Shown here in pieces: positions 209 to 12,726 of a DNA stretch of 12,726 nt. The notes under the pieces were generated by a model. That model was not told the DNA's origin. It did no database searches and worked only from the letters and a program-made list of their open reading frames with translations. How positions within the stretch are numbered: position 1 is the stretch's first letter; each line of letters opens with the position of its first letter. The DNA comes from a virus (Duplodnaviria; Heunggongvirae; Uroviricota; Caudoviricetes). The stretch lies in the IMG/VR virus record IMGVR_UViG_2585427728_000005; one strand, 5' to 3'. The position numbers were made by a program, and so were the translations under genes.

Positions 209-646
209 TTACTTAATAACAGTAACCACAGCCACAAGCACGGCCATCGCAGACAGGACAATACCTGTGAGTAACCAAGTCTGATTTGCAAATGATTTCT
301 GAAGTTCAGTACGATGCTCAGCCATCTCAACTTTCAGAGACTGGCGTAAATCAGCCATCTCAGACTTCAGGGATTGGCGCGATTCTGCCATCTCAAGCCT
401 CAACCCTTCGCGAATCTCCAGTACATCAGATTTGGTAGCAAAGGATTCGCTTCTTGTGGTGAGAGTAATCAGGTTGTTTTTGATTTCAGTCACATCACTT
501 TCCAGGCAACTGACCCGCCGTTCAAGGTCGTCATTCATGCCATCACCTCCATCATTACCACTTCCTGTTACTTGGTTGTTGGATACATTATAGGCATTCT
601 CTTTCTTTTTTCTGAACCGCGAAATATGTGCAACATTCTCTGCCAT
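209..646 (-). CDS. Hypothetical protein with an 11-residue-repeat coiled coil and a C-terminal transmembrane helix; sits where a tail-fibre assembly/chaperone gene would be expected, but is not recognisable as one
   Basis: Open frame of 146 codons from a GTG at 649; the first ATG is at 646. Three 11-aa repeats (EMAESRQSLKS / EMADLRQSLKV / EMAEHRTELQK) and a hydrophobic C-terminus (WLLTGIVLSAMAVLVAVVTVIK). Lies directly downstream of the tail-fibre cassette on the same strand and is followed by the terminator at 54..83. Confidence 0.55.
   Translation of the reverse strand: MAENVAHISRFRKKKENAYNVSNNQVTGSGNDGGDGMNDDLERRVSCLESDVTEIKNNLITLTTRSESFATKSDVLEIREGLRLEMAESRQSLKSEMADLRQSLKVEMAEHRTELQKSFANQTWLLTGIVLSAMAVLVAVVTVIK
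318..416. repeat. Three imperfect 33-bp tandem repeats inside CDS 209..646, encoding the 11-residue coiled-coil repeats
   Basis: Copies begin with tcagccatctc at 318 and 351 and with tctgccatctc at 384; the period is exactly 33 bp. Confidence 0.7.
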
Positions 647-677
647 CACTTCTCATCACCCTGCTTGCCTACCCAGT

Positions 678-1100
678 TCATAAAGGCCCGGGCCGAGTAA
701 CGATGAACAAACCCACATCTGTTACAGGTAAGTCGGAATTCATAGTTATGGATATTTTCCCGATCATGTCCCTCATATCCCGGATATCCCAATTCCATCC
801 AACGGATGTATCACCATTAACAGTATTACCTGTTTGTCGGAGTGCAAATGCATTGACATTTTTGGCACTAATTGAAATATCGCTAGAACCATCAAAACCA
901 ACTCCAGCAATTTTTCGTGCTGTTTTCAGCTTTGTTGCAGTAGCGGCATTGCCGGACAGCTCCCCAGAAAGGCCACCGCTGAATGTTTGTCGATTGGTCC
1001 AGGTATTCGCTGTACTGAGTAACGGTATTTTCTCCCCGCTTGTGCCGAGTTCTCGTAAACCGAGGTTTTGGATAATGGCCGTTTCCGGCCTGCATGGCAT
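678..1100 (-). CDS. Tail-fibre protein C-terminal (variable) cassette with no N-terminal constant domain of its own; probably the invertase-proximal alternative cassette of an invertible segment
   Basis: Contains the conserved tail-fibre motif ATATKLKTARKIAGVGFDGSSDISI that I recall from P2 H, Mu S and P1 S type fibres. The frame is open upstream only to a stop at 1125-1127, so no constant part is encoded on the invertase side. The gix-like site at 1050..1075 lies inside its 5' end. Confidence 0.6.
   Translation of the reverse strand: MPCRPETAIIQNLGLRELGTSGEKIPLLSTANTWTNRQTFSGGLSGELSGNAATATKLKTARKIAGVGFDGSSDISISAKNVNAFALRQTGNTVNGDTSVGWNWDIRDMRDMIGKISITMNSDLPVTDVGLFIVTRPGPL
1050..1075. other. 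gix/hix-like recombination (crossover) site for the adjacent serine invertase
   Basis: TTCTCGTAAACC-GA-GGTTTTGGATAA: two 12-bp imperfect inverted half-sites (9/12 symmetric) around a central GA dinucleotide, about 55 bp upstream of the invertase start. It differs at only two positions from the Mu gix sequence as I recall it (TTCCTGTAAACCGAGGTTTTGGATAA). Confidence 0.65.
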
Positions 1101-1129: not shown

Positions 1130-1729
1130 GTGCTGATTGGCTATGTAAGGGTATCAACAAATGACCAGAATACAGACTTGCAACGAAACGCTCTTGTTTG
1201 TGCAGGATGCGAACAAATATTTGAAGATAAATTAAGCGGGACAAAGACAGACCGACCGGGATTAAAACGCGCTTTAAAGCGCCTTCAAAAAGGTGACACG
1301 CTGGTTGTCTGGAAACTGGATCGCCTCGGGCGAAGCATGAAACATCTGATTTCTCTCGTCGGGGAACTACGGGAGCGAGGGATTAATTTTCGCAGTCTGA
1401 CCGACAGCATAGATACATCTTCTCCAATGGGGCGTTTTTTCTTCCACGTGATGGGTGCCCTGGCTGAAATGGAACGTGAATTAATTGTTGAACGTACACT
1501 GGCCGGACTGGCGGCAGCGCGCGCACGGGGGCGCACAGGCGGACGTCGACCGAAGCTGACAAAAGAACAGCATGAGCAAATAGCAAGGCTAATCAAAAAC
1601 GGGCACGACAGAAAACAACTGGCAATAATTTACGGCATTGGCACATCGACGATTTATCGTTATCACCCTGTAGGCGATATACAGACTGAAGAAACAACCG
1701 GGCAGACTCAGGAAAATGAAAACCGCTAA
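1130..1729 (+). CDS. Serine recombinase DNA invertase of the Gin/Pin/Cin/Hin family
   Basis: From the GTG at 1130 the product is 199 aa and begins VLIGYVRVSTNDQNTDLQRNAL, the hallmark N-terminus of Gin/Pin with the catalytic Ser in YVRVST; it also has the GDTLVVWKLDRLGRS and MGRFFFHVMGALAEMERELI blocks and a C-terminal HTH region. A GGGAGA Shine-Dalgarno lies 6 nt upstream of the GTG. The ORF track begins at a TTG at 1112, which is probably not the real start. Confidence 0.9.
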   Translation: MLIGYVRVSTNDQNTDLQRNALVCAGCEQIFEDKLSGTKTDRPGLKRALKRLQKGDTLVVWKLDRLGRSMKHLISLVGELRERGINFRSLTDSIDTSSPMGRFFFHVMGALAEMERELIVERTLAGLAAARARGRTGGRRPKLTKEQHEQIARLIKNGHDRKQLAIIYGIGTSTIYRYHPVGDIQTEETTGQTQENENR

Positions 1730-1749
1730 TCTGACCATTAGCGGTTTTT
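1719..1749. terminator. Bidirectional intrinsic terminator between the convergent invertase and gpU genes
   Basis: Perfect 12-bp inverted repeat aaaaccgctaat (1719-1730) / attagcggtttt (1737-1748) with a 6-nt loop, and A/T runs on both sides giving a U-tract in either direction. The invertase stop codon lies in the left arm. Confidence 0.5.
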
Positions 1750-1757
1750 GTGTAAAA

Positions 1758-2252
1758 TCAGAACAGCCCTTTAACTGAACTGGCCGCGCTGTTAAGAGAT
1801 GATGTCACCTTATCTTTGAAGCCGGACAGCATATCACTGAACGATGAGGATTGCAGGCGCTCCCGCAAATCCTCATCACAGCGTTCAAGGGTCAGTGAAA
1901 ATTCTATCTTTTTCGCCTTACCGTAGCGATCAAACTCGGAACGGGTCGTATTCGTTTCAGTCAGCACATACATGCCGTAAATCTGCCCGACGCCATCAAT
2001 CAGAGGCCAGGGTCGTCCTGTATACGCCTGCGTGGTCAGCAGCGACAGCGATACTTCGCCACCTGTAATTTCAGGATAAAGCACACCAGAAAGAACGATG
2101 CGATCATCTCCTGCACCGATATACTGCCAGCTTGCTGAACGGTTAACGCGTTCATTTTTCACATGCCGCCAGCTTTTGTTTTGCTGTAACTGCTGATGCG
2201 GCAGCGTGCGCAGCTCAAAAACAAACATGCCGTAGATCATCATCATGGCCAT
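1758..2252 (-). CDS. U: P2-type tail protein gpU
   Basis: About 160 aa, immediately downstream of the tape measure gene on the same strand, matching P2 gene order T-U. The N-terminus (MMMIYGMFVFELRTLPHQQLQ) fits my recollection of the gpU family. A GAGGAG Shine-Dalgarno lies upstream; the true start may be the second or third Met. Confidence 0.75.
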   Translation of the reverse strand: MAMMMIYGMFVFELRTLPHQQLQQNKSWRHVKNERVNRSASWQYIGAGDDRIVLSGVLYPEITGGEVSLSLLTTQAYTGRPWPLIDGVGQIYGMYVLTETNTTRSEFDRYGKAKKIEFSLTLERCDEDLRERLQSSSFSDMLSGFKDKVTSSLNSAASSVKGLF

Positions 2253-2258
2253 GACTCC

Positions 2259-5075
2259 TCAATCTTTATCGTAAAAACTGCCACGCCCGGCACGGGCGCG
2301 CCGTTCCATTTCTGCCCTGACCATTTCACCTACCAGTTTCGCAAGTTCGCGGGGATTCTGCGTAACAACGTTATGCAGATGAACATGAATTTCACCGCCA
2401 AATCCGGAGGCAACCGGCTCCCGATTACGGGAAGCTGCAGGAACTGATGCCACTGGCGATCGTATGGCCTCCGCCACCGGGCGGGAGCTGGCCGCAACAA
2501 CAGGGACCAGCGCCGGAGGCAGCGGAGCCGGGACCACGGGTGTGATATTAATTGCGGGGGCAGGCTTACTGACCTGCGCAATCTTCCGCTCCTGCCACTC
2601 CCCACGAACGGCAAGTGCGCGGGGCAGGTTCTTAAAGACAATATCGCCGGGGCCAATGCGTTTTTTCGTCTCATCAACCAGCTTACCTGTGTTATCAGCA
2701 ATTTTGCTGAGTCTGCGCAGCGTACCGGTATTGCTGTCTGTGAGCGGTTTATTGTCTTTGGGGTTATCACCTCCGGTACCATTGCCATTTTCCACAGGCT
2801 TCGGCGGATTGATTTTCGCCAGGTCCCCCTGAAGCAAGGCAACCTTGTCCTGAAGAATGGCCGCACGCTGTGCGTCTTCGATTTTCTTGCGCGCCCTTTC
2901 CGCTTCATCCGGAAGGACGCCAAGTTTTTCAAGTATCCACGCCAGCGTATCCAGCAGCATTTTTGCAGGTGTCAGAACAAGCTGTAACGCACCGCCAAGA
3001 ACGTTACCGAATATCTCGCCAGCACTGGTACATTTATCCAGCGTTTCCTTGCTGGACTCCATCGGTGACAGCAGCGATTTAAACCAGTTAAACACCTGGC
3101 TGATCCCGCTCCCGATTGCGTCAAAAACAGGACCAAACCGTTCAAAAGTTTCGCGCAACGGGGTCAGCCTTTCCATAATCCCGCTGAACACCCCGGCAAA
3201 AAATGCCCTGATGGGATCCCAGTATTTCCAGATAAGAACGGCAGCTCCGGCAAGCGCAGCCACGATAAGACCAACCGGACTGAACAACGCCCCGATAGCG
3301 CCTCCCAGCAAAGAAACGGACCCCGTCACCATTCCCCATAGTGCTGGCAGGACCCTGACAGCATTCATTGATCCGGTCAGGAGAGAAAAACCAAGACGCA
3401 GTTTTGCCAGCGGACCAGCAAGCACACCAATAGCCAGCGACAACGAGCCAACCGTTGCAGTCATTGCCAGCAACGCACCGCCTGCTATCAGTAGCTGGCG
3501 CGTCAGTGCCGGATGGGCCTGCGCCAGCGCCGTCACCCTTGATACCACCCGCGTGAGCCACTGCGTGACAGAACGCAGCGGACCGTCAATCAGATCTGCA
3601 ATGCGGATGCGCAACCCTTCCCATGCACTGCCGAGTGATTTCAGATCGCCGTCAAGGTTGTTGGCCATAACCTTTGCTGTGCGTTCAGCCTCACCGCGCG
3701 CGCCTTCAAGTTCTTTTCTCAGTTTGGGTAAGGAACCGTCACCCGCTGCATCAACGAGCGCCATAAACGATGTGAAAGCCTCTTCTCCGGCAATGTCCTT
3801 AAAGAACGATACCCGGTCAACTTCCCCGTATTTGCGGGTGGCTTTATAAAGGTCGGCCAGCACATCCTCCATCGGGCGCATTTTGCCCCCGGCATCCGAG
3901 ACGGACACGCCCAGCTCTTTCAGAGCTTCTGCCCCCGCCTTTGGCGGTGATGCCAGACGAGCCAGGCTGGCACGCATTGCCGTCCCGGCATCACTCCCTC
4001 TGATGCCCATATTCGCCAGCACGCCAGCCATCGCTGCGGCCTGCTCCAGCGATATTCCCAGCTTCCCCGCCACCGGACCTGCATATTTCATGGTTTCGCC
4101 CAGTGCGCGAAGGTCAGTGTTGGTACGGGTAAACGCTGCGGTGAGTGTGTCACCGACCCGGTCCATCTGGTCAGCAGAAAGGCCGAACTGCGTCAGGATA
4201 TTTGAGCCAATATCTGCCGTCTCGCCGAGATCCATACCGCCAGCCGTTGCCATGCTCAGCACGCCGGGAAGCGCAGCCTGAATGGCCTGCGGAGTGAAGC
4301 CAGCCATTGCAAGAAATGCCTGTCCACTGGCGGCATCGCCTGCGGTGAACTGCGTTTCAGAGCCAAGTTTTAACGCCTGCTCACGCAGCGCTTTAAACTG
4401 CGGGCTGTTCTGGTCGATTCGCGTCAGTGCCTGAACGCGGGACATCTCTTTGCCGAACCCGATCGCAGGCTGCAAAAAACGCCCGGCAGCATAGCCGCCC
4501 GCCGCTGCCGCACCAATTGCCAGCGCACCACCTGTTTTCAGTTTTCCCGCTGTTTCCTGCGCGCGCGAATACCGCTCACGCGCCCGCGTTACACGCGCAA
4601 GCGCCTGCCGTTCGCGTTCAAGCTGGTTGTTGTACTGTTCGGTGCGTCTGATGGCCTGCTGGATGGTGTTATCGCTGCCTGTCAGGGAAATGCCGTGGCG
4701 TTTCAGCTCTCCGCCAAGTTCCCGCATTTTCTGAATTTCCCGTGTGCGCGATTCATTCAGGCGTTCAAGCCGGGTGCTTAACTGCCGCATCAGCTTTTGT
4801 TGTTTTTCGCTGAGCACTGTACCCGTGCGTTGTAACTGATTAAGGGCGTTAAGCTGGCGTCGTGCTTTCAATATGCCAGCATCCGCTTTACTGACAGCGT
4901 CACGGGCGCGCTCAAATGAACGCGCCTGACGCTCGAGATTTTTGATCGCCCCCTGCGTTCGCTGGATGGAGTCACCAAGCTGCCCCATCAGGCGGCGGGC
5001 GTTTTCGGCAGGCCGGGTCAACCTGTCAACGGCGCTGAAAGCGACCCGGATATCAAGAGTCTTCATTATCTGCAT
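2259..5075 (-). CDS. T: Tail tape measure protein (gpT-like)
   Basis: 938-aa ORF with a long coiled-coil N-terminal region and Gly/Ala-rich hydrophobic segments typical of tape measure proteins. It lies between the chaperone gene E/E' and U. The start may be the internal Met at 5066. Confidence 0.85.
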   Translation of the reverse strand: MQIMKTLDIRVAFSAVDRLTRPAENARRLMGQLGDSIQRTQGAIKNLERQARSFERARDAVSKADAGILKARRQLNALNQLQRTGTVLSEKQQKLMRQLSTRLERLNESRTREIQKMRELGGELKRHGISLTGSDNTIQQAIRRTEQYNNQLERERQALARVTRARERYSRAQETAGKLKTGGALAIGAAAAGGYAAGRFLQPAIGFGKEMSRVQALTRIDQNSPQFKALREQALKLGSETQFTAGDAASGQAFLAMAGFTPQAIQAALPGVLSMATAGGMDLGETADIGSNILTQFGLSADQMDRVGDTLTAAFTRTNTDLRALGETMKYAGPVAGKLGISLEQAAAMAGVLANMGIRGSDAGTAMRASLARLASPPKAGAEALKELGVSVSDAGGKMRPMEDVLADLYKATRKYGEVDRVSFFKDIAGEEAFTSFMALVDAAGDGSLPKLRKELEGARGEAERTAKVMANNLDGDLKSLGSAWEGLRIRIADLIDGPLRSVTQWLTRVVSRVTALAQAHPALTRQLLIAGGALLAMTATVGSLSLAIGVLAGPLAKLRLGFSLLTGSMNAVRVLPALWGMVTGSVSLLGGAIGALFSPVGLIVAALAGAAVLIWKYWDPIRAFFAGVFSGIMERLTPLRETFERFGPVFDAIGSGISQVFNWFKSLLSPMESSKETLDKCTSAGEIFGNVLGGALQLVLTPAKMLLDTLAWILEKLGVLPDEAERARKKIEDAQRAAILQDKVALLQGDLAKINPPKPVENGNGTGGDNPKDNKPLTDSNTGTLRRLSKIADNTGKLVDETKKRIGPGDIVFKNLPRALAVRGEWQERKIAQVSKPAPAINITPVVPAPLPPALVPVVAASSRPVAEAIRSPVASVPAASRNREPVASGFGGEIHVHLHNVVTQNPRELAKLVGEMVRAEMERRARAGRGSFYDKD

Positions 5076-5289
5076 TCCCGCTGCGAAGTGCCGCCCGCTC
5101 GCGCCAGCTAACCACTTCGCCGGGCGTCATCATGAAGATTTCGGCGGGCGACCAGTTAAAAATGGCGGCAATATCCGCCACCAGATCTTCGATGTGCTCA
5201 AAGCACACCAGGGTGATTACGCTGCCGTCTCCTGCACGCTCTTCGCGCCAGAGTCTGGCTCGCTCATAAAATTTACAGCCACAGCGCAC
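5053..5289 (-). CDS. gpE' extension: the -1 frame part of the tail assembly chaperone fusion E+E', reached by programmed frameshift from gpE
   Basis: A -1 frame relative to gpE is open from 5319 to a stop at 5053 and overlaps both the 3' end of gpE and the 5' end of gpT, the conserved arrangement of tail chaperone frameshift genes. The slippery heptamer is at 5268..5274. Confidence 0.6.
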   Translation of the reverse strand: MRCGCKFYERARLWREERAGDGSVITLVCFEHIEDLVADIAAIFNWSPAEIFMMTPGEVVSWRERAALRSGNADNEDS

Positions 5290-5591
5290 AACTGAATAAA
5301 ATCGCGTGACGACATTTTTTTAATCATCACTTCATCCAGTCGTGGCGAGGTCACGCGAGGCAACAGCGTGAACATGGTATCCGCTTTCAGATTCAGCACA
5401 TCAGACAGCGACAGACCACGCAGGGATCCAGCCTGCTCAATAGCCCCGGTGATCTCCACATACGTGATTTTTTCGCCACCACGCTCAATTGGTCGGGTCA
5501 GTTTTACGCCACGTTCGACAGCCATATCCTCACCTGCCGTCACATCATCCGCCACGGTGTTATTCCGGGTTTCAGTATCGATGTCTTTCAT
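5217..5591 (-). CDS. E: Tail assembly chaperone gpE (0-frame product)
   Basis: 124-aa ORF between the tube gene and the tape measure gene, with an AAGGAG Shine-Dalgarno 7 nt upstream of the ATG at 5591. Position and the overlapping -1 frame match the P2 E/E' arrangement. Confidence 0.7.
   Translation of the reverse strand: MKDIDTETRNNTVADDVTAGEDMAVERGVKLTRPIERGGEKITYVEITGAIEQAGSLRGLSLSDVLNLKADTMFTLLPRVTSPRLDEVMIKKMSSRDFIQLCAVAVNFMSEPDSGAKSVQETAA
5268..5274 (-). other. Candidate -1 programmed ribosomal frameshift slippery heptamer A_AAT_TTT in gpE
   Basis: In the gpE frame the minus strand reads GTA AAT TTT ATG (V N F M). The heptamer A-AAT-TTT fits the X_XXY_YYZ pattern, and a -1 slip gives AAA TTT TAT (K F Y), which is exactly the sequence of the overlapping frame. 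Confidence 0.4.
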
Positions 5592-5646
5592 CAGTTGTCT
5601 CCTTTTCAGTCAGAGGCGACGCACTGCGCCGCCTGCATATTATTTA

Positions 5647-6159
5647 TCAGCCAAGCCCAAGCGCGGAACGGATACGGTCAGGCACAATGTCCTTGCCGTC
5701 CTTCCGGTAGATGTGGTTCAACAGGTCGATTTCCCACAGCGGGCGATCGTTAACGCTCAGCTTGTAGTAGGTGTTTTTGACAGCGTAAGTGTGTGATGTG
5801 GCTTCACCCTGTTTGGCTTCCCCCATATCAATTTCCGTCACACGCCCGCGCATCTCGATTTCATACAGATCACTTTCTGCATCGGTGTAGTATTCACCCG
5901 CAAAACGCAGCAGCGTGCCGTCAATCGTGCCGCCATATTTAAGGAACAGCTCACGAACTGCGCCCCCCATGACAAAGCTCGCATCAAGCGCGGAGTCGTC
6001 CAGACCGAGATCAATACTTACCGCCCCCATCATGCCACCACCCCGGTAGCTGTCGGTTTTGCGCGTCAGCTTAGGCAGAGTGACGGACGTCACCTTACCC
6101 ACTTCGTTTTCACCATCCACAAACAGCGTAAAAAAGCGAAGATGTTTTGGCACAGCCAT
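5647..6159 (-). CDS. FII: Tail tube protein (gpFII-like)
   Basis: 170 aa, immediately downstream of the sheath gene; the sheath stop and tube start overlap as TGATG at 6157-6161. Size and position match the P2 FI-FII pair. Confidence 0.85.
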   Translation of the reverse strand: MAVPKHLRFFTLFVDGENEVGKVTSVTLPKLTRKTDSYRGGGMMGAVSIDLGLDDSALDASFVMGGAVRELFLKYGGTIDGTLLRFAGEYYTDAESDLYEIEMRGRVTEIDMGEAKQGEATSHTYAVKNTYYKLSVNDRPLWEIDLLNHIYRKDGKDIVPDRIRSALGLG

Positions 6160-7343
6160 CAGGCACCTCCCAGCACCGCAAATGCGGGTTCAAAGTATTC
6201 ATCAGTAAACGTCTGGTAAAGCTCCATGTCTTCCAGTGGCGGAACGGGCGTATATTTGTAGCGAATGCGCACACGCCCCTGACGTAAATCCGTGGTGCTG
6301 TTATCCACCACGTCATACCAGCACTCCGCACCAATCAGTTTCCCGGCAGTAACCAGTGAATCCAGTTTTGCCCTGATGGCACTGATAACATCCTTCACGT
6401 TCGCAGGCGTCAGTGGACTGTCGATGGTTTCAAACTGCGCTTCCGCAATTGAATCAGCCAGCACCTGTGCGGTTCGGGTATACACCTCAAAGATGTAGGC
6501 GTTCGTTTCCGGTGTGCGGTTGCCCCAGAAGCGGAACCCGTTGCGACGAATAATGGTCGTGATTTCTTTGTTGTTGAGGCTGTTGGCATCACTGTCTTCG
6601 GCCTGCAACGACCAGAACACATGCCTGGACATCCCCAGCACATTTTTAACCGGAACGTTGGACAGCGATTTGTGCCAGCCCTGCTCATGGTCAATGTACG
6701 CACGAAGGCCGCACGCATAAGCAGGCGCGGGGAACGTTTCGTTTTCGCCACTTTTCGGGTTGTAGGCGATGAAGTCCGGCCATAAGAGCATCACTTCACG
6801 TTCGTTGAATTTCTGGCGGTAGGTAATCGCTTCAGCCATCGTGTTACAGCCGTGACATGAGGCATACACAAACGCACGCAGTTTACCCGCAATCACGCAC
6901 AGGGATTTTGTCACCGCCTCCGTGTCCAGCTCCGGCGCGGCCAGAATACGCGGACGGTATCCGATGCTTTCATCCTGCTCTGCAACAAGCAGCGCATACA
7001 TCCCCGTATAGCTGCCGTCATCCTCAGAACCACCGATAACCAGTTGATCCTGCGTCTTTTCGTCTTCTTCTTTGTGTTCAGCCACGCGAACGACGATCAC
7101 CTTTGTGCTCACCTGGTCTGCGATGGCCTTAAGCGCACGATAAAGCGTCCCCGTTGTCCCGCATTTTCCCAGCACGTCATTGACGCGGGTCAGCAGTGTG
7201 GGCTTGTTCAGCGGGAACAGCTTCGCGTCCGCATCATCCGCCGTTGCCACGATACCGATAACACTGGAATCAACATCATTAATCGCTGTTACCAGGTCGG
7301 TATTTTCCGTAACACGGGCACCATGAAAACGAGTTTCACTCAT
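6159..7343 (-). CDS. FI: Contractile tail sheath protein (gpFI-like)
   Basis: 394 aa (P2 FI is about 396 aa), first gene of the FI-FII-E-T-U block, with an AAGGGG Shine-Dalgarno upstream of the ATG at 7343. Confidence 0.9.
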   Translation of the reverse strand: MSETRFHGARVTENTDLVTAINDVDSSVIGIVATADDADAKLFPLNKPTLLTRVNDVLGKCGTTGTLYRALKAIADQVSTKVIVVRVAEHKEEDEKTQDQLVIGGSEDDGSYTGMYALLVAEQDESIGYRPRILAAPELDTEAVTKSLCVIAGKLRAFVYASCHGCNTMAEAITYRQKFNEREVMLLWPDFIAYNPKSGENETFPAPAYACGLRAYIDHEQGWHKSLSNVPVKNVLGMSRHVFWSLQAEDSDANSLNNKEITTIIRRNGFRFWGNRTPETNAYIFEVYTRTAQVLADSIAEAQFETIDSPLTPANVKDVISAIRAKLDSLVTAGKLIGAECWYDVVDNSTTDLRQGRVRIRYKYTPVPPLEDMELYQTFTDEYFEPAFAVLGGA

Positions 7344-7500
7344 AGCTTCAGCCCCTTGTATCCGTTAAATGATTCGGCAACAATCATCACCCACCACGCG
7401 CGTAATCTCACCCCTGCGCCGTTCTCCCGACCCGGCGACAACAAAAAGCAGTAACCCCCTCCGCACGCACATGCGACCATGCCACACAGGGAGGGAACAG

Positions 7501-8610
7501 ATGACCGATACCACCATGCAATTGCTCAGTCAGGGCACAGACCCCGTGAAAATGCCGGATTTTGATATTCTCGCGGAGGGTAAAACGCTGTCAGGCGTGG
7601 CAGAGCGCCTGATGACCCTGTCACTGACCGACAACCGGGGATTTGAGGCGGACCAGCTCACCATCACGCTGGATGATGCGGATGGTCAGTTGCAGCTACC
7701 GCAACGGGGCGCGCGCCTGACGGTTCTCATTGGCTGGAAAGGCGAACCGCTGACAGAAAAAGGCACTTACATTGTTGATGAAATCGCACACGAAGGACCG
7801 CCGGACAGGCTGACTGTTTCAGCCAGAAGCGCAGATTTTCGGGATGAATTTAACGTTAAACGTGAGGTGTCCTGGCATGATGTGACCGTTGAGCGTGTGG
7901 TATCCGCCATCGCTCATCGGTATGGTCTGAAACCGCAAATCAGCGAAATGCTGATGGATATCGAAATCGACCACGCCGACCAGACCGAAGAAAGCGACAT
8001 GTCCTTCCTTACGCGCATGGCGGAAATGCTGGGCGCAATCACCACGGTAAAAAGCGGTAATCTGTTATTCATCATGCCCGGTGGTGGCGTGAACGCACAG
8101 GGCCAGCCGTTGCCCTCGTTCGCCATCACGCGCAGCAGTGGCGATCGCCATCAGTTCCGCATTGCTGACCGCGAAGCGTATACGGGTGTACGCGCCTACT
8201 GGCTTGATCTTAATTACGGGAAAAAGAAAAAAGTCAGCGTGAAACGCCGCAAACCGCCAAAACCCAAAAAGGAGAAAAGCAGCAGCCGTGAAGGTGATTA
8301 TATGGAAGGCGCGGAAGGAAATGTGTTTGTGTTACGCAAGACTTATCAGAACGAGCAGGCAGCAAGACGCGCAGCGGCGGCAAAGTGGCAGCAGCTACAA
8401 CGCGGAGCCGCATCATTCTCCATCACACTGGCTCGTGGACGCGCAGAACTCTACCCCGAAATGCATGGCACGGTAACAGGATTTAAAAGCGAGATTGATA
8501 ATCAGGACTGGATTATTGCGAAAGCCGATCACACCATTGATAACAGTGGCTTTACCACGCAGCTTGAGCTTGAGGCAAAAATCCCGGAATGGATAGCGGA
8601 AACAGAGTGA
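7501..8610 (+). CDS. D: P2 gpD-like tail protein (late control D family)
   Basis: 369 aa from the ATG at 7501, which has a strong GGGAGGG Shine-Dalgarno 5 nt upstream; the ORF-track start at 7369 is probably too far upstream. Size and sequence character fit the gpD family, and it lies upstream of ogr as in P2. Confidence 0.8.
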   Translation: MTDTTMQLLSQGTDPVKMPDFDILAEGKTLSGVAERLMTLSLTDNRGFEADQLTITLDDADGQLQLPQRGARLTVLIGWKGEPLTEKGTYIVDEIAHEGPPDRLTVSARSADFRDEFNVKREVSWHDVTVERVVSAIAHRYGLKPQISEMLMDIEIDHADQTEESDMSFLTRMAEMLGAITTVKSGNLLFIMPGGGVNAQGQPLPSFAITRSSGDRHQFRIADREAYTGVRAYWLDLNYGKKKKVSVKRRKPPKPKKEKSSSREGDYMEGAEGNVFVLRKTYQNEQAARRAAAAKWQQLQRGAASFSITLARGRAELYPEMHGTVTGFKSEIDNQDWIIAKADHTIDNSGFTTQLELEAKIPEWIAETE

Positions 8611-8820: not shown

Positions 8821-11613
8821 CTAAATCTCAGCAATCTTTTTTTTACTGTGCTGTTCTATTATCAACTCTGCTTCCGCTTGGTATTCATGAGCTAACTCTC
8901 GAAGAATTCGGGCAAATCGATGAAAGCCTAGAAGTTCCATTGCATCAGACTTAGTGTGATATTGTTGGGCTAACTCCAATTCCGGTTTACCTTCTGGGTC
9001 AACAATGTAGACACCACGCGAATTTATTATCGCATTCTTATAACCAGTACGCACTTTATCAAGTTCACGTCTATTCAAAAACTCGGCCAGTTCTGGAAGT
9101 ATCCAATGCTCGTCATTTGCAGGGCTAAAAATTAATATGCTTCCAATCCTATGATAAGCAAAATCTAAATGGCCTGACTTTTCGCATTCTGTTTGGACAA
9201 AATCAAACCAGTTATTAAACGCCTTGACATCAAACTTGCCTTCAGCATCAACACCCGGAATCTTTTTCCAATCATCAAGTAAATAGAGTGAGTTTTTGGC
9301 AATATTTATTTCACTTTCAGATAGTTCTTTACTTGCTTTTTGAAATTCTGATCGATACGCATATTGAATGACTTCACAAAAAAAACTGGGTTCACTTGCA
9401 AGTTTTTTCTCTAATACTTGAGGATGCAACGAATCATTAGCCCCCCTGTTAATTACAGGTAGGTATGCCCATTCAATCTTTACTAAGTCGTCATCTGAAA
9501 CAGTGTTATCATTTTGAATATAATTCACAAGTTCATTAAATGAGTGAATATCAAACCGCTCAATATTTTCTGTGGTTCTAATTGATTGCAATAGAGCAAG
9601 CACAACCTTACTGCTATCAACTGAATTATCGATATGCAAAATTTTAGATAAACAATCTATTGCCATCAAGGGACGGTCTACTTTAATCAAGCAGTCTATA
9701 GCAAAATAAATTTCTTCCGTTGAATCACAGCTGTATGCATTAACAAGAGTATTTTTCCAATACTCGAAAGGAAAATCATCAAATGAAGCGTTTAATGCAT
9801 CCCATGTTTCTTTTTTAAACGGTAACAAAAGAAAAAAAGCAATCTTTTCTTGAGCACTCCAGTCATTAATAACTGTCAACACCCATGATTTTCCTTCTCT
9901 GTAGTTTTTAGCCTGTACATAACCAGAAGCAAGAGAATTTTCCTTTTTAATATCACTAACAATAAGTTTTTTCAGTATATCTAAAGGAATTTCTAGATCT
10001 TCTGCGACCAGGCTACTACCAACAAACTCAGGCCTTTCAATAGATAGAGAGAATTCTAAGACTCCATCAATACCATTAATAGCATATATTTCGCATATTG
10101 ATTGCCCTCGTTCTTTTGTCAACCTTTCTTCTTGGTCCCGCCAGTTTCCATTTTCATCAAATAGGAAGTAATTGTTTTGTGCAAAAAGTCGCTTGCTATA
10201 AAGCATAGGATCTTCGGGCTTCAAGACTGTAGAAACATCTTTGATTTTTTCATTTTGTTCTGGTTGCATTGCCCAATAAGCACCTGAGAATCTTTTGTTT
10301 TTGTTATAAACTTCTAAACATTTTTCCCACACCGCTAACTTCAATTCAGCACTATCTGTTTTTTTAGAAAAATCATACAATAGTTTAATTGCATCATCGA
10401 ATTTAAATGGCGCTAAACTACCAATATTTTCAACTAAATCAACAAGTCTTAATGATGATTTACTTGCCAATTCAATTGTTAATTGAGTGTATATTTCAAT
10501 CTGAGTACGGCACTCATCACCCGATGGCCTTTTATTAAAACCGTTAGGAATAAAGTTTCTAAAAGTTGGAATATGTGTGCCAGATGTTACTTGCGTGTTG
10601 TTGGGTAGCAACTGAACTAAAACACGCCATGCTGTATCGGGCCACTCCCTTGCCAATGCGTTGAAAGCAGCAATACGTCTATCTATATCAGCTGTAGTAT
10701 GAGGAAGCCATGGTAACAATATGTTGATTATCGAGTTAAGTGGCCTGTTAGCCCAATTGCCACCAGGATCATGGCTATCCAGCTCCCCTAATATTACTAA
10801 AGAGCGAGATAAATAGTTAGGCGCCCAAGCTAATCCTTCAATAGCCCATAGCAGTCCTGTCATATAATTCCGACCTGAAATTCCACCGATACCTTCCTGT
10901 GCAAAAAGTGAATCAAATGGCTTGTCTTGGTGAGATGCAGCATTTTCCACTTCGTCGATAAAACAGTCAGGAGCACTTTCCGCAAGCATAACTTGAATAT
11001 CTTGCGTACTAGCCCATAATTGCCAGCTAGAAGCCGAAAAAACCTCTTTAACCACACTTGAGGCGCAATATTGCCCTTTATATTTTGAGCAATTAGTAAG
11101 TAACTCTTGCTTTGTTGCAACTAATGCCAACCCTTCGGATAGTCCTTTCCTTATTAATCGGCTGTGTGGTAAAACCTTCCCATAAATTACTGCTGCATAA
11201 CGCTCTTCAGGTGCCAGTTCAAATTGTGGGTCGATAGTTTTAAAAACGGATACAACAGTCGTCCGAAACAAATCCAAATGATCATCGAATAATCTTGACG
11301 ATACCGTTTGAAATGTTTGTATTCTATCTTTAAAACTCCAAGAACCTCTCTCATGAATCAAAGGACTATCTTGCATCCCTTCAATTATTCTTAATTTTCG
11401 AATCCAACTGTCATATGACTCGCTAATAAGGCTTGTAATTATATCAATATCACCATTATTTTTTTCATCCCAGCAACCGACTAAAACAGCAATCGCTAAC
11501 TCAGTCGCATAATCAACATTATCACTATTGTATACAATTAAGTTACCAGCAACATTATGGCCTGTTCCGGTATGATTTTGACTAATTGAACTGCAGCTAT
11601 GAATGTTATCCAT
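8821..11613 (-). CDS. Large (~930 aa) protein of unknown function; second gene of the AT-rich cargo operon between D and ogr
   Basis: Uninterrupted 2.8-kb ORF in AT-rich DNA, where long open frames are unlikely by chance. ATG at 11613 with a GAGG Shine-Dalgarno 8 nt upstream; the ORF track starts at a GTG at 11619 that overlaps the upstream stop. I see no Walker A, HExxH, HNH or RT motif and cannot assign a family. Confidence 0.85.
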   Translation of the reverse strand: MDNIHSCSSISQNHTGTGHNVAGNLIVYNSDNVDYATELAIAVLVGCWDEKNNGDIDIITSLISESYDSWIRKLRIIEGMQDSPLIHERGSWSFKDRIQTFQTVSSRLFDDHLDLFRTTVVSVFKTIDPQFELAPEERYAAVIYGKVLPHSRLIRKGLSEGLALVATKQELLTNCSKYKGQYCASSVVKEVFSASSWQLWASTQDIQVMLAESAPDCFIDEVENAASHQDKPFDSLFAQEGIGGISGRNYMTGLLWAIEGLAWAPNYLSRSLVILGELDSHDPGGNWANRPLNSIINILLPWLPHTTADIDRRIAAFNALAREWPDTAWRVLVQLLPNNTQVTSGTHIPTFRNFIPNGFNKRPSGDECRTQIEIYTQLTIELASKSSLRLVDLVENIGSLAPFKFDDAIKLLYDFSKKTDSAELKLAVWEKCLEVYNKNKRFSGAYWAMQPEQNEKIKDVSTVLKPEDPMLYSKRLFAQNNYFLFDENGNWRDQEERLTKERGQSICEIYAINGIDGVLEFSLSIERPEFVGSSLVAEDLEIPLDILKKLIVSDIKKENSLASGYVQAKNYREGKSWVLTVINDWSAQEKIAFFLLLPFKKETWDALNASFDDFPFEYWKNTLVNAYSCDSTEEIYFAIDCLIKVDRPLMAIDCLSKILHIDNSVDSSKVVLALLQSIRTTENIERFDIHSFNELVNYIQNDNTVSDDDLVKIEWAYLPVINRGANDSLHPQVLEKKLASEPSFFCEVIQYAYRSEFQKASKELSESEINIAKNSLYLLDDWKKIPGVDAEGKFDVKAFNNWFDFVQTECEKSGHLDFAYHRIGSILIFSPANDEHWILPELAEFLNRRELDKVRTGYKNAIINSRGVYIVDPEGKPELELAQQYHTKSDAMELLGFHRFARILRELAHEYQAEAELIIEQHSKKKIAEI

Positions 11614-11618
11614 AGACA

Positions 11619-11939
11619 CTACCTCGTAATTTTATTTCCACCAATATTATCACCAGTGCCACTATGGTTTTGAATAATGACAGTTGCTGCATGAGGTTTT
11701 ATAGACGAGAGTATTTTTTGAATTTCACTACTATCCAATAGTTTTCTTTCAATTGCTATTTCACTCATTTCATCGTTCAAAGACAGTTTTTCAAGCTCTT
11801 TAGCTAAAGCAGGGGCTACAGCCTCATCAACAACCCAATTTTTTAACTTTTCTTTTATTGAAGTTGCAGTAATCGAAACATGATGTTTAAGCATGTCATA
11901 AACTATGCCAGAAAGTATCGTCGAAGATAAAAAATCCAT
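11619..11939 (-). CDS. Small (106 aa) predicted helical protein of unknown function; first gene of the cargo operon
   Basis: ATG at 11939 with an AAGGGA Shine-Dalgarno 8 nt upstream. Its TAG stop (11619-11621) lies 6 nt from the ATG of the large gene, suggesting translational coupling. The C-terminus carries the motif QNHSGTGDNIGGN, which is also present at the N-terminus of the large protein. Confidence 0.75.
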   Translation of the reverse strand: MDFLSSTILSGIVYDMLKHHVSITATSIKEKLKNWVVDEAVAPALAKELEKLSLNDEMSEIAIERKLLDSSEIQKILSSIKPHAATVIIQNHSGTGDNIGGNKITR

Positions 11940-12134: not shown

Positions 12135-12395
12135 ATGTTCCGTTGCCCGCTTTGTGGCGCATCTGCCCGCATCCGTACCAGTCGTCCGGAAAATGATTCA
12201 AATACCGTGCGGCAAAAGTATTACCAGTGTAACAACTTGGAATGCGGCGTCTGCTTCTCAACACTGGAAGCTTTCCATAAGTTCACATCAAAACACGCCT
12301 CAAGTGTTCACTCTTCAGAGGGTATCCCGTGGCATGCTCTGCCTGCTTCACACAGGGGAAACAGTCAGATGAGTTTGCCCTTACCTCAGGATTAA
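12135..12395 (+). CDS. ogr: Ogr/Delta-family zinc-finger late gene transcription activator
   Basis: N-terminus MFRCPLCGASARIRTSR...YYQCNNLECGVCF carries the C-x2-C...C-x4-C zinc finger and aligns with P2 Ogr as I recall it (MFHCPLCQHAAHARTSR...YHQCQNVNCSATF). A GGGAGG Shine-Dalgarno lies 5 nt upstream of the ATG. It lies downstream of D as in P2. Confidence 0.85.
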   Translation: MFRCPLCGASARIRTSRPENDSNTVRQKYYQCNNLECGVCFSTLEAFHKFTSKHASSVHSSEGIPWHALPASHRGNSQMSLPLPQD

Positions 12396-12455: not shown

Positions 12456-12719
12456 ATGGTCGGAGGGAATACCCGAAGGCCAGATGTGGAAAGGCCCCGG
12501 AAAACATTTCTGTTTAACCGAGGCCCTAACCGCATTACCTTGACAAGTGAAAGGTTAGCGCCTCTCCGGAAAAGGAGCAAGTGCTATGTCGCAAAAATCG
12601 CTTACGGCCATCACGTTCTGCGTGACGGCAATCCTCATCATCTGGATGCTGCACGGTTCGCTGTGCGAAATACGGATGAGCTTCTGGGGAGCGGAGTTTG
12701 CGGCGTTCTTACAGTGTAA
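12456..12719 (+). CDS. mok-like overlapping leader ORF of the hok locus
   Basis: An 87-codon frame that begins upstream of the hok-like gene and overlaps almost all of it in a different frame, as mok does in hok/mok/sok loci. Assigned by position only. Confidence 0.3.
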   Translation: MVGGNTRRPDVERPRKTFLFNRGPNRITLTSERLAPLRKRSKCYVAKIAYGHHVLRDGNPHHLDAARFAVRNTDELLGSGVCGVLTV

Positions 12720-12726
12720 GCAGTAA
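12586..12726 (+). CDS. hok: Hok/Gef-family type I toxin (small membrane peptide)
   Basis: 46-codon ORF, too short for the ORF track: MSQKSLTAITFCVTAILIIWMLHGSLCEIRMSFWGAEFAAFLQCKQ, ending in TAA at the last base of the window. It has an N-terminal TM helix, the conserved SLCE(I/L) block and an E-x-AAFL-x-CK tail that resemble HokA as I recall it. An AGGAG Shine-Dalgarno lies 8 nt upstream. Confidence 0.75.
   Translation: MSQKSLTAITFCVTAILIIWMLHGSLCEIRMSFWGAEFAAFLQCKQ

Follow-up and report, generated by a model that had tools for sequence, protein, structure and literature searches.

The strand switch that separates the tail genes FI to U from D in a 12,726-nucleotide stretch of tailed-phage DNA (the window) is the normal gene order in a clade of P2-related Enterobacterales phages. 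With a probability of about 0.8, we attribute this order to a single ancestral inversion of the late promoter pF together with FI..U, with FI and D now expressed from a bidirectional, Ogr-dependent promoter. According to this reading, one ancient inversion of pF and the FI-FII-E-E'-T-U segment would have taken place in the ancestor of the clade, uncoupling D, and the read-through into ogr, from the F operon; D expression would then have been restored by a bidirectional Ogr-dependent late promoter in the 157-bp spacer between FI and D.

Genes were called from the open reading frame listing and PHROG matches, and ogr was identified by Pfam (Table 1); the coordinates of the small GpE-family ORF were carried over from an E. 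coli prophage with an offset of 8441. The strand split described in the first-pass annotation is real, as these data placed FI-FII-E-E'-T-U on the minus strand (7343 down to 1758) and D and ogr on the plus strand. The 157-bp region from which FI and D diverge (7344-7500) was confirmed as well, and the palindromic terminator on which U and the invertase were said to converge was found as a hairpin flanked by T-runs (1719-1748/1749), lying between the stop codons of both genes. The P2 order used there as reference agreed with the P2 GenBank record, which assigns D to the F operon and gives a single strand for FI, FII, E, E', T, U, D and ogr. A longer D ORF starting at 7369 (413 aa) was rejected: homologues and PHROG models aligned only from about residue 43, which corresponds to the ATG at 7501, and the stretch before it shows no conservation at the protein level; the start was set at 7501, with GGGAGGGA just upstream. 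A 932-aa cargo protein gave no match by Pfam or PADLOC.

Table 1. Genes, recombination site and predicted regulatory elements in the window.
Feature	Position	Strand	Basis
gix recombination site TTCTCGTAAACCGAGGTTTTGGATAA	1050-1075		Right boundary of invertible tail-fibre segment; 92% match to Mu G-segment boundary plus gin
Invertase, Gin/Hin-type serine DNA invertase	1130-1729	+	phrog_125 DNA invertase, E 1e-96; DNA 92-97% identical to gin of Mu, D108 and SfMu
Bidirectional intrinsic terminator	1719-1749		12-pair stem, 6-nt loop, T-runs on both sides; common to convergent invertase and U
gpU tail protein	1758-2252	-	phrog_76, E 5e-75; 46% identity to P2 U
gpT tape measure protein	2259-5075	-	phrog_28, E 2e-216
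GpE-family small ORF, E' part of chaperone pair	5053-5208	-	Annotated as GpE family phage tail protein in a 99.9%-identical E. coli prophage
gpE tail chaperone	5217-5591	-	phrog_103, E 1e-36
gpFII tail tube	5647-6159	-	phrog_55; 44% identity to P2 FII; RefSeq name major tail tube protein
gpFI tail sheath	6159-7343	-	phrog_23, E 3e-127; 46% identity to P2 FI
Predicted -10 hexamer GATGAT of FI-ward late promoter	7383-7388	-	Centre 46 nt from dyad centre; clade consensus GATTAT; putative function
Ogr-type activator dyad TCT-N12-ACA, extended GTTCT-N12-ACAACAAAAA	7423-7440, centre 7431.5		Motif and conservation; predicted binding
Predicted -10 hexamer GACCAT of D-ward late promoter	7475-7480	+	Centre 46 nt from dyad centre; clade consensus AATCAT/GACCAT; putative function
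gpD, late control D / VgrG-like tail protein	7501-8610	+	phrog_52, E 1e-165; 49% identity to P2 D
ogr, Ogr/Delta zinc-finger late activator	12135-12395	+	Pfam Ogr_Delta 52.4 bits (cut-off 26.3); four cysteines, CX2C-X24-CX4C

Judged from its sequence, the window comes from a P88-like (Xuanwuvirus, Peduoviridae) prophage, of which it covers the tail region. It was colinear with P88 and P884B11, with identities of 95.6% and 97.5%, values that refer to the shared 64-67% of the 12.7-kb window and not to whole genomes. From the invertase through ogr, it was colinear with Citrobacter phage phiSM, P884B11, 520873, P88 and 500465-2, with a DNA identity of 93-98%. In the annotation of these phages, D lies on the strand opposite to U..FI, the arrangement of genes and strands is identical to that of the window, and the spacing between the FI and D starts is likewise 158 nt. 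The left 800-1050 bp of the window, the variable part of the tail-fibre segment, is unlike the P88-like phages and phiSM. A 3.5-kb GAPS6 insert between D and ogr is present in the window but not in P88, other Xuanwuvirus phages or phiSM. Functional phages among these relatives are P88, which can be induced and is lytic, and phiSM, which shows spontaneous activity (PMC5285337; PMC6456863). The comparison with P2-like phages and prophages suggested by the first-pass annotation therefore found the divergent FI/D arrangement as the normal one in related functional phages.

The same order was observed beyond this group, in SEN4 (Senquatrovirus), Kp4848-1 (Reipivirus), Kp4877-2 (Reginaelenavirus) and Serratia KSP20, and was present in four Peduoviridae genera plus KSP20. 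A scan of GTDB genomes (one genome per species with peptide-word seeding, so that rare exceptions could be missed) returned 23 prophage loci in 13 enterobacterial genera whose FI reached an identity of 69% or more; FI and D were on opposite strands in all 23, with their starts 158-319 nt apart. The 31 loci with an FI at most 49% identical were all colinear like P2; three loci were cut by contig ends. Within E. coli, the observed FI/D junction was found at a coverage of at least 80% in 1195 of 5426 complete genomes (about 22%). Chimeric queries representing the un-inverted junctions were also built, and since the invertase-to-FI junction must change together with the U-to-D junction, only the latter was searched; it was found in none of the 1414 E. 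coli genomes matching either half. Collectively, the order is fixed in E. coli and conserved across the clade. Of the three explanations originally offered, a lineage-specific arrangement was thus borne out by P88, phiSM, SEN4, the Klebsiella phages and KSP20; the suggested link to the invertase was not supported.

The first-pass annotation had reasoned that D would need its own promoter within 7344-7500, and this gained support at the sequence level from an Ogr-type dyad with mirror-image hexamers. It had also reported no clean Ogr box; there is indeed no exact TGT-N12-ACA in the spacer, but the TCT-N12-ACA dyad had been missed. This dyad differs from the consensus TGT-N12-ACA, as cited in PMC3931495, by one mismatch (TCT for TGT), and a cognate Ogr/Delta activator gene is encoded in the window. 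At the aligned position, a perfect TGT-N12-ACA was found in KSP20, Kp4877-2, SEN4 and one prophage locus (L025), and most clade members have TGT-N12-AGA. A TGT-N12-A(C/G)A dyad with a variable N12 spacer lies 81-88 nt upstream of the FI ATG (82 in P2 pF) in 26 of the 30 loci with the opposite order, and the remaining four retain a TTGTTGT half-site. When the sequences were aligned on the dyad, -10-like hexamers were conserved 46 nt from its centre on both sides, as was the intervening block on the D side. A dyad match with up to one mismatch is expected by chance in roughly one in five windows of 40 nt; the case for a promoter therefore rests on conservation among sequences related by common ancestry. 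As a control, the pF dyad was sought in colinear loci and was detected only in P2 itself and Yersinia aldovae, two enterobacterial P2-type loci; it was not found in 27 distant colinear loci, which limits the value of the test to Enterobacterales. Scanning positions 7250-7600 for a sigma-70 consensus gave no hit in the spacer, as would be expected if the promoters depend on an activator and lack a -35 element.

The dyad and both hexamers are thus conserved, and their arrangement suggests a single bidirectional late promoter for FI and D, in which one dyad-symmetric Ogr site, centred about 55 nt upstream of two divergent starts, would serve both FI..U and D. Ogr binding and Ogr dependence are predictions, as are the start sites, placed at about 7376 on the minus strand for FI..U and about 7487 on the plus strand for D; the predicted D leader, which contains GGAGGG, would be only 14 nt long, a point that speaks against the model. 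A precedent is found in P2: one shared feature of its record, the 'activator binding site; pO, pP promoters' at 3057-3087, covers both promoters, whose start sites are given as 3016 and 3127. A rule placing the hexamer at 46 nt and the start at 55.5 nt reproduced these annotated pP/pO starts exactly. In both P2 pP/pO and the FI-D spacer, a single dyad with one imperfect half-site lies midway between divergent late genes, with hexamers 46 nt to each side and start sites, annotated in P2 and predicted in the window, 111 nt apart. The P2 pF and pP/pO sites are also one mismatch from the consensus, both being TGT-N12-CCA, and the P<>O spacer of P88 contains the same variant motif as the window, GTTCT-N12-ACAACAAAA. 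In phage Smp131 one 18-mer was assigned to both PP' and PO' (PMC3931495). The two systems differ in output, as P2 pP/pO drives packaging and head genes whereas the FI-D site would drive tail genes (FI..U and D).

A competing explanation is that the dyad is an ordinary pF for FI..U only, and that D has a separate, possibly Ogr-independent promoter or low constitutive expression. On the D side, the hexamer GACCAT is indeed a weak -10, and the failure to detect a sigma-70 consensus promoter in the spacer is also counted on this side. Nevertheless, D, annotated in P2 as essential and as a late tail gene, must be expressed late, the D-side hexamer is conserved at the exact mirror distance of 46 nt along with the dyad-hexamer block, and the design of one site with two promoters is annotated for P2 pP/pO and fits the P<>O spacer of P88. 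We therefore regard a separate D promoter as rather unlikely. As for the origin of the shared promoter, we lean slightly towards the view that, after the inversion had brought pF and FI..U beside D, the symmetric Ogr site was co-opted in both directions, independently re-creating the pP/pO design for tail genes.

Next, the history of the inversion was considered. The window and the P2 F operon (pF-FI-FII-E-E'-T-U-D, then ogr) share the same genes in the same internal order, with protein identities of 35-49%; in both, ogr follows D and an Ogr-type dyad precedes the FI ATG by 82-88 nt. In P2, all genes of the F operon, which ends with D, share a strand with ogr, whereas in the window pF-FI..U is inverted and lies between the tail-fibre genes and D, so that D is cut off from U and faces away from FI. 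The first-pass annotation had left open whether FI..U or the D-cargo-ogr block was inverted relative to P2. The baseplate and tail-fibre genes V-W-J-I-H-G share a strand with D and ogr in P88, P884B11 and a near-identical E. coli prophage, and this points to FI..U, and not D..ogr, as the inverted block. In neighbour-joining trees of both FI and D, the opposite-order loci formed a single clade (27/27, with no intruders). The loci are thus monophyletic, and a single event is the parsimonious reading of these trees, from which the uniqueness of the inversion, like its direction, is deduced.

Instead of an inversion in place, the ancestor could have acquired FI..U as a foreign cassette in reversed orientation. 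Phage genomes are mosaic, and two parts of the window are clearly of recent mosaic origin, namely the GAPS6 insert and the invertase cassette, which matches Mu at 92-97% identity. However, divergence from P2 is about equal for FI (46%), U (46%) and D (49%), and the P2 pF spacing is retained on the FI side, with the dyad 82-88 nt from the ATG. Moreover, the FI and D trees gave the same clade, and there is thus no sign of separate histories for FI..U and D. Modular uptake was accordingly judged clearly improbable, and the inversion in place was retained.

The first-pass annotation had also raised the possibility of a recombinase-mediated rearrangement, given the invertase nearby. In this case the Gin-like enzyme would recently have flipped, or could flip, the 5.6-kb FI..U block through gix-like pseudo-sites near 1730-1760 and 7344-7500. 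A serine invertase gene does abut the U end of the block, and the window contains a genuine gix: searched along its full length, the 26-mer of this site gave a 26/26 match at 1050-1075, the sole gix-like site found. At the FI..U junction zones, the best gix similarity was 12-13/26, below the shuffle maxima of 15-18, and no inverted repeats with arms at about 1730-1760 and 7344-7500 were found. The block therefore lacks inverted 26-bp sites at both ends. Neither do close relatives show both orientations, as the flipped junction was found in 0 of the 1414 E. coli genomes, against 1195 with the observed one. Nor does the invertase accompany the segment wherever it occurs: it is missing next to U in SEN4, Kp4848-1, Kp4877-2, two 97%-identical prophages of the same order (L009 and L010) and most other same-order loci, and KSP20 has the inverted order without any invertase. 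Conversely, one colinear prophage (L032) carries an invertase directly upstream of FI. A flip by the invertase is thus very remote. The window invertase and gix match Mu/D108 gin and the boundary of the G segment at 92-97% identity, and so resemble the Mu G segment/Gin system among the Hin-Gin-Cin-Pin tail-fibre switches. The switch acts leftward of the invertase, on the tail-fibre segment, with alternative tail-fibre and assembly genes encoded by the minus strand (209-1100); FI..U, on the right, has no gix and is not invertible. The gene order is unrelated to the Gin-like invertase, which is part of a separately acquired, Mu-like tail-fibre switching cassette.

An assembly artefact near the 1730 and 7400 junctions, also raised earlier, is of negligible probability: nothing was found in its favour, and phage genomes sequenced independently share the identical FI/D junction, as do 1195 complete E. 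coli genomes.

The divergent FI/D gene order itself is already known from P88-like phages. A text search of the P88 and phiSM papers (PMC5285337, PMC6456863) found no discussion of gene order, inversion or orientation, the titles and abstracts found by searches on Xuanwuvirus and on P2-like synteny held nothing relevant, and the rescue of an inversion-orphaned gene by a dyad-symmetric activator site was not described in the papers searched. The U/D strand switch should not be misread as a recent rearrangement, an assembly error or a product of the invertase. Present in about 22% of complete E. coli genomes, the switch reliably marks a large clade of P2-related prophages by its synteny. The new point is a modest one, the predicted bidirectional Ogr-dependent promoter between FI and D, which would explain how late control of D was kept after this gene left the F operon. 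If true, this would be a natural example of an inversion-orphaned gene rescued by a dyad-symmetric activator site.

The window was annotated from an ORF listing with PHROG and Pfam matches, and the strands, coordinates, spacer length and terminator of the first-pass annotation were all correct. In the P2 GenBank record, a single strand carries FI, FII, E, E', T, U, D and ogr, and an 'F operon' start site is annotated for FI through D. In P88, P884B11 and the prophage of E. coli strain 19AR1724, the latter 99.9% identical to the window, the head, lysis, baseplate and tail-fibre genes (M ... V W J I H G) share the strand of D and ogr. Relative to P2, it is therefore FI to U that has been reversed in situ, between the tail-fibre genes and D.

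Features of the window and their coordinates
Feature	Coordinates	Strand	Remark
Alternative tail-fibre assembly gene	209-649	-	
Alternative tail-fibre C-terminus	678-1100	-	promoterless
gix site	1050-1075		
Gin-like invertase	1130-1729	+	
Hairpin terminator	1719-1749		
gpU	1758-2252	-	
gpT	2259-5075	-	
gpE'	5053-5208	-	
gpE	5217-5591	-	
gpFII	5647-6159	-	
gpFI	6159-7343	-	
FI-D spacer	7344-7500		157 bp
FI-side -10-like hexamer	7383-7388	-	GATGAT; consensus GATTAT
D-side -10-like hexamer	7475-7480	+	GACCAT; consensus AATCAT
gpD	7501-8610	+	
Low-GC insert	8821-11939	-	
GapS6a partner	8821-11619		932 aa; no match in Pfam or PADLOC
GapS6a-family protein	11619-11939		NCBIfam NF047935, 136 bits (cut-off 90); Pfam HetE-N
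ogr	12135-12395	+	Ogr/Delta family, downstream of D
hok/gef-type gene	12586-12726	+	

In a megablast search of phage genomes, the window had colinear matches from the invertase to ogr with 93-98% identity, among them Citrobacter phage phiSM, Xuanwuvirus P884B11 and phages 520873, P88 and 500465-2, and the annotations of these phages repeated its strand pattern. P88 is a functional phage, induced from E. coli K88 and able to lyse other strains, and phiSM is temperate and spontaneously active (PMC5285337; PMC6456863). The divergent order is thus normal in related functional phages, as expected if it were lineage-specific, one of the options first put forward; this outcome had been named beforehand as one that would refute a rearrangement. 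When FI and D were searched by tblastn against all phage records, both genes were adjacent on opposite strands wherever FI was at least 55% identical, including 520873, Klebsiella Reipivirus and Reginaelenavirus phages, Salmonella SEN4/SEN5 (Senquatrovirus) and the Serratia KSP20 fragment; below 50% identity, FI and D were colinear (P2, L-413C, pro483, and Burkholderia, Ralstonia and Mannheimia phages). A scan of bacteria, with one genome per species, gave 57 loci, sorted by local tblastn, three of them cut by contig ends. The opposite order was seen in every one of the 23 loci whose FI was at least 69% identical, the starts of FI and D lying 158-319 nt from each other; all 31 with FI at most 49% identical were colinear. 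Opposite-order loci came from Salmonella, Citrobacter, Edwardsiella, Enterobacter, Kosakonia, Symbiopectobacterium, Pantoea, Mixta, Erwinia, Izhakiella, Kluyvera, Trabulsiella and Serratia. Under a Gram-positive label, 'Vagococcus sp. WN89Y' (NZ_JBQPOM010000071.1), one contig carries a prophage (L010) whose FI, U and D share 96-98% identity with this E. coli/Salmonella-type phage; that assembly is likely to be contaminated or to bear the wrong label.

Simple neighbour-joining trees, one for FI and one for D, without support values, placed all 27 opposite-order loci that passed the length filters in a single clade with no colinear intruder. Since all distant relatives in the Alpha-, Beta- and Gammaproteobacteria are colinear, this order is taken as ancestral, and a single inversion in the ancestor of the enterobacterial clade would be the simplest history. 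Among P88-like phages, the opposite order is conserved and ordinary. It is visible in every public genome of the clade, including four ICTV genera, and is therefore already known as data; the KSP20 GenBank record (2008-2009) has a gpD-like orf2 annotated opposite a gpFI-like orf3. We found no discussion of the FI/D order in the literature that could be searched.

The proximity of the invertase had led to the suggestion that it produced this order, which the data did not support. The true FI/D junction (window 6850-7995) was covered to at least 80% in 1195 of 5426 complete E. coli genomes, and a constructed P2-like U-to-D junction reached this coverage in none of the 1414 E. coli genomes matching its halves, counts that depend on the tool merging adjacent pieces into one 'place'. 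No inverted repeats with arms at both junctions of the block were found. Scanning the whole window with the gix 26-mer gave 26/26 only at the gix site; the best similarity in the junction zones was 12-13/26, against 15-18 in shuffled sequence. Moreover, SEN4, two Klebsiella phages, KSP20 and the L009 and L010 prophages have no invertase beside U, yet show the opposite order, the last two being 97% identical, and one colinear prophage (L032) carries an invertase immediately upstream of FI. Together, these results ruled out that FI to U can be switched or was turned by the invertase. The invertase and gix form a tail-fibre switching cassette that was recently exchanged; the left end of the window falls inside its Mu-type invertible segment, and 1-1729 holds the alternative fibre genes, gix and the invertase. 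With gin of Mu, D108 and SfMu, the invertase and gix share 92-97% DNA identity; no phage outside the genus comes nearly as close to the remainder of this phage as Mu-type gin does to the invertase, which suggests that Mu-like and P88-like phages exchanged it recently.

On the other side of D, a 3.5-kb insert, with a GC content of 0.32-0.38 where the tail genes have about 0.54, separates ogr from any D read-through. Its gene pair matches GAPS6, an anti-phage system of two genes that was reported from GMT islands (bioRxiv 10.1101/2023.03.28.534373). Of 5426 complete E. coli genomes, only 7 contain the insert as a whole. In P88 and P884B11, which lack it, ogr comes 43 nt after D, and a further genome carries a DUF2971 gene in this position, so the D-ogr junction looks like a cargo hotspot in the clade. 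RefSeq gives D of 19AR1724 only 801 nt plus a pseudogene fragment (L066 16198-17051); the 369-codon ORF is intact there, indicating a start-site quirk of annotation and not a defect. A Hok/Gef-type toxin ORF of 46 codons, annotated as Hok/Gef or MokW-like in P88, P884B11 and RefSeq, begins 191 nt downstream of ogr and stops exactly at the window end.

The FI-D spacer of the window itself has no clean TGT-N12-ACA, as first reported; a one-mismatch form overlooked at that stage, TCT-N12-ACA, lies at 7423-7440 (extended form CGTTCT-N12-ACAACAAAAA). The P2 pF and pP/pO sites are likewise one mismatch off (TGT-N12-CCA); the dyad consensus and four-promoter scheme are summarised in PMC3931495. Such a dyad alone is weak evidence, about 0.2 being expected per 40-nt window. 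In an alignment of seven phages, TTGTTGT was invariant amid poorly conserved spacer sequence, and KSP20, Kp4877-2 and SEN4 had a perfect TGT-N12-ACA at the aligned position. In 26 of 30 opposite-order loci, a TGT-N12-A(C/G)A dyad has its centre 81-88 nt before the FI ATG, with varying N12 spacers, and the other four retained the TTGTTGT half, a conservation that is partly inherited among related sequences; in P2 pF, this distance is 82 nt. As an internal control, the P88 spacer between P and O (terminase/scaffold; L067 5153-5306) contained a single dyad midway between both genes, GTTCT-N12-ACAACAAAA, sharing the variant motif of the window.

Anchored on the dyad, 25 distinct sequences showed -10-like hexamers conserved exactly 46 nt from its centre on both sides. 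The P2 record has one 'activator binding site; pO, pP promoters' (3057-3087) with divergent starts at 3016 and 3127, and placing the hexamer centre at 46 nt and the start at 55.5 nt from the dyad centre (3071.5) gave both exactly. The same rule predicts starts at about 7376 (-) and 7487 (+) in the window. Based on the dyad, the mirrored hexamers, the likeness to P2 and P88 and the ogr gene, we propose the FI-D spacer as a candidate bidirectional, Ogr-dependent late promoter of the pP/pO type, where Ogr bound at one dyad would fire both FI to U (-) and D (+). The expectation that D needs its own promoter in 7344-7500 is supported by these sequence elements.

In the E. coli prophage, baseplate gene V starts only 11 nt after S (L066 3198-3210), so that it seems to lack the separate pV promoter region known from P2. 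With one dyad in each of the P-O and FI-D spacers and pV apparently missing, the late genes of this clade may be expressed from two bidirectional promoter regions. If true, the FI-D promoter would be a further instance of the one-site, two-promoter design of P2 pP/pO, also described as PP'/PO' in Smp131 (PMC3931495), and no new type of element.
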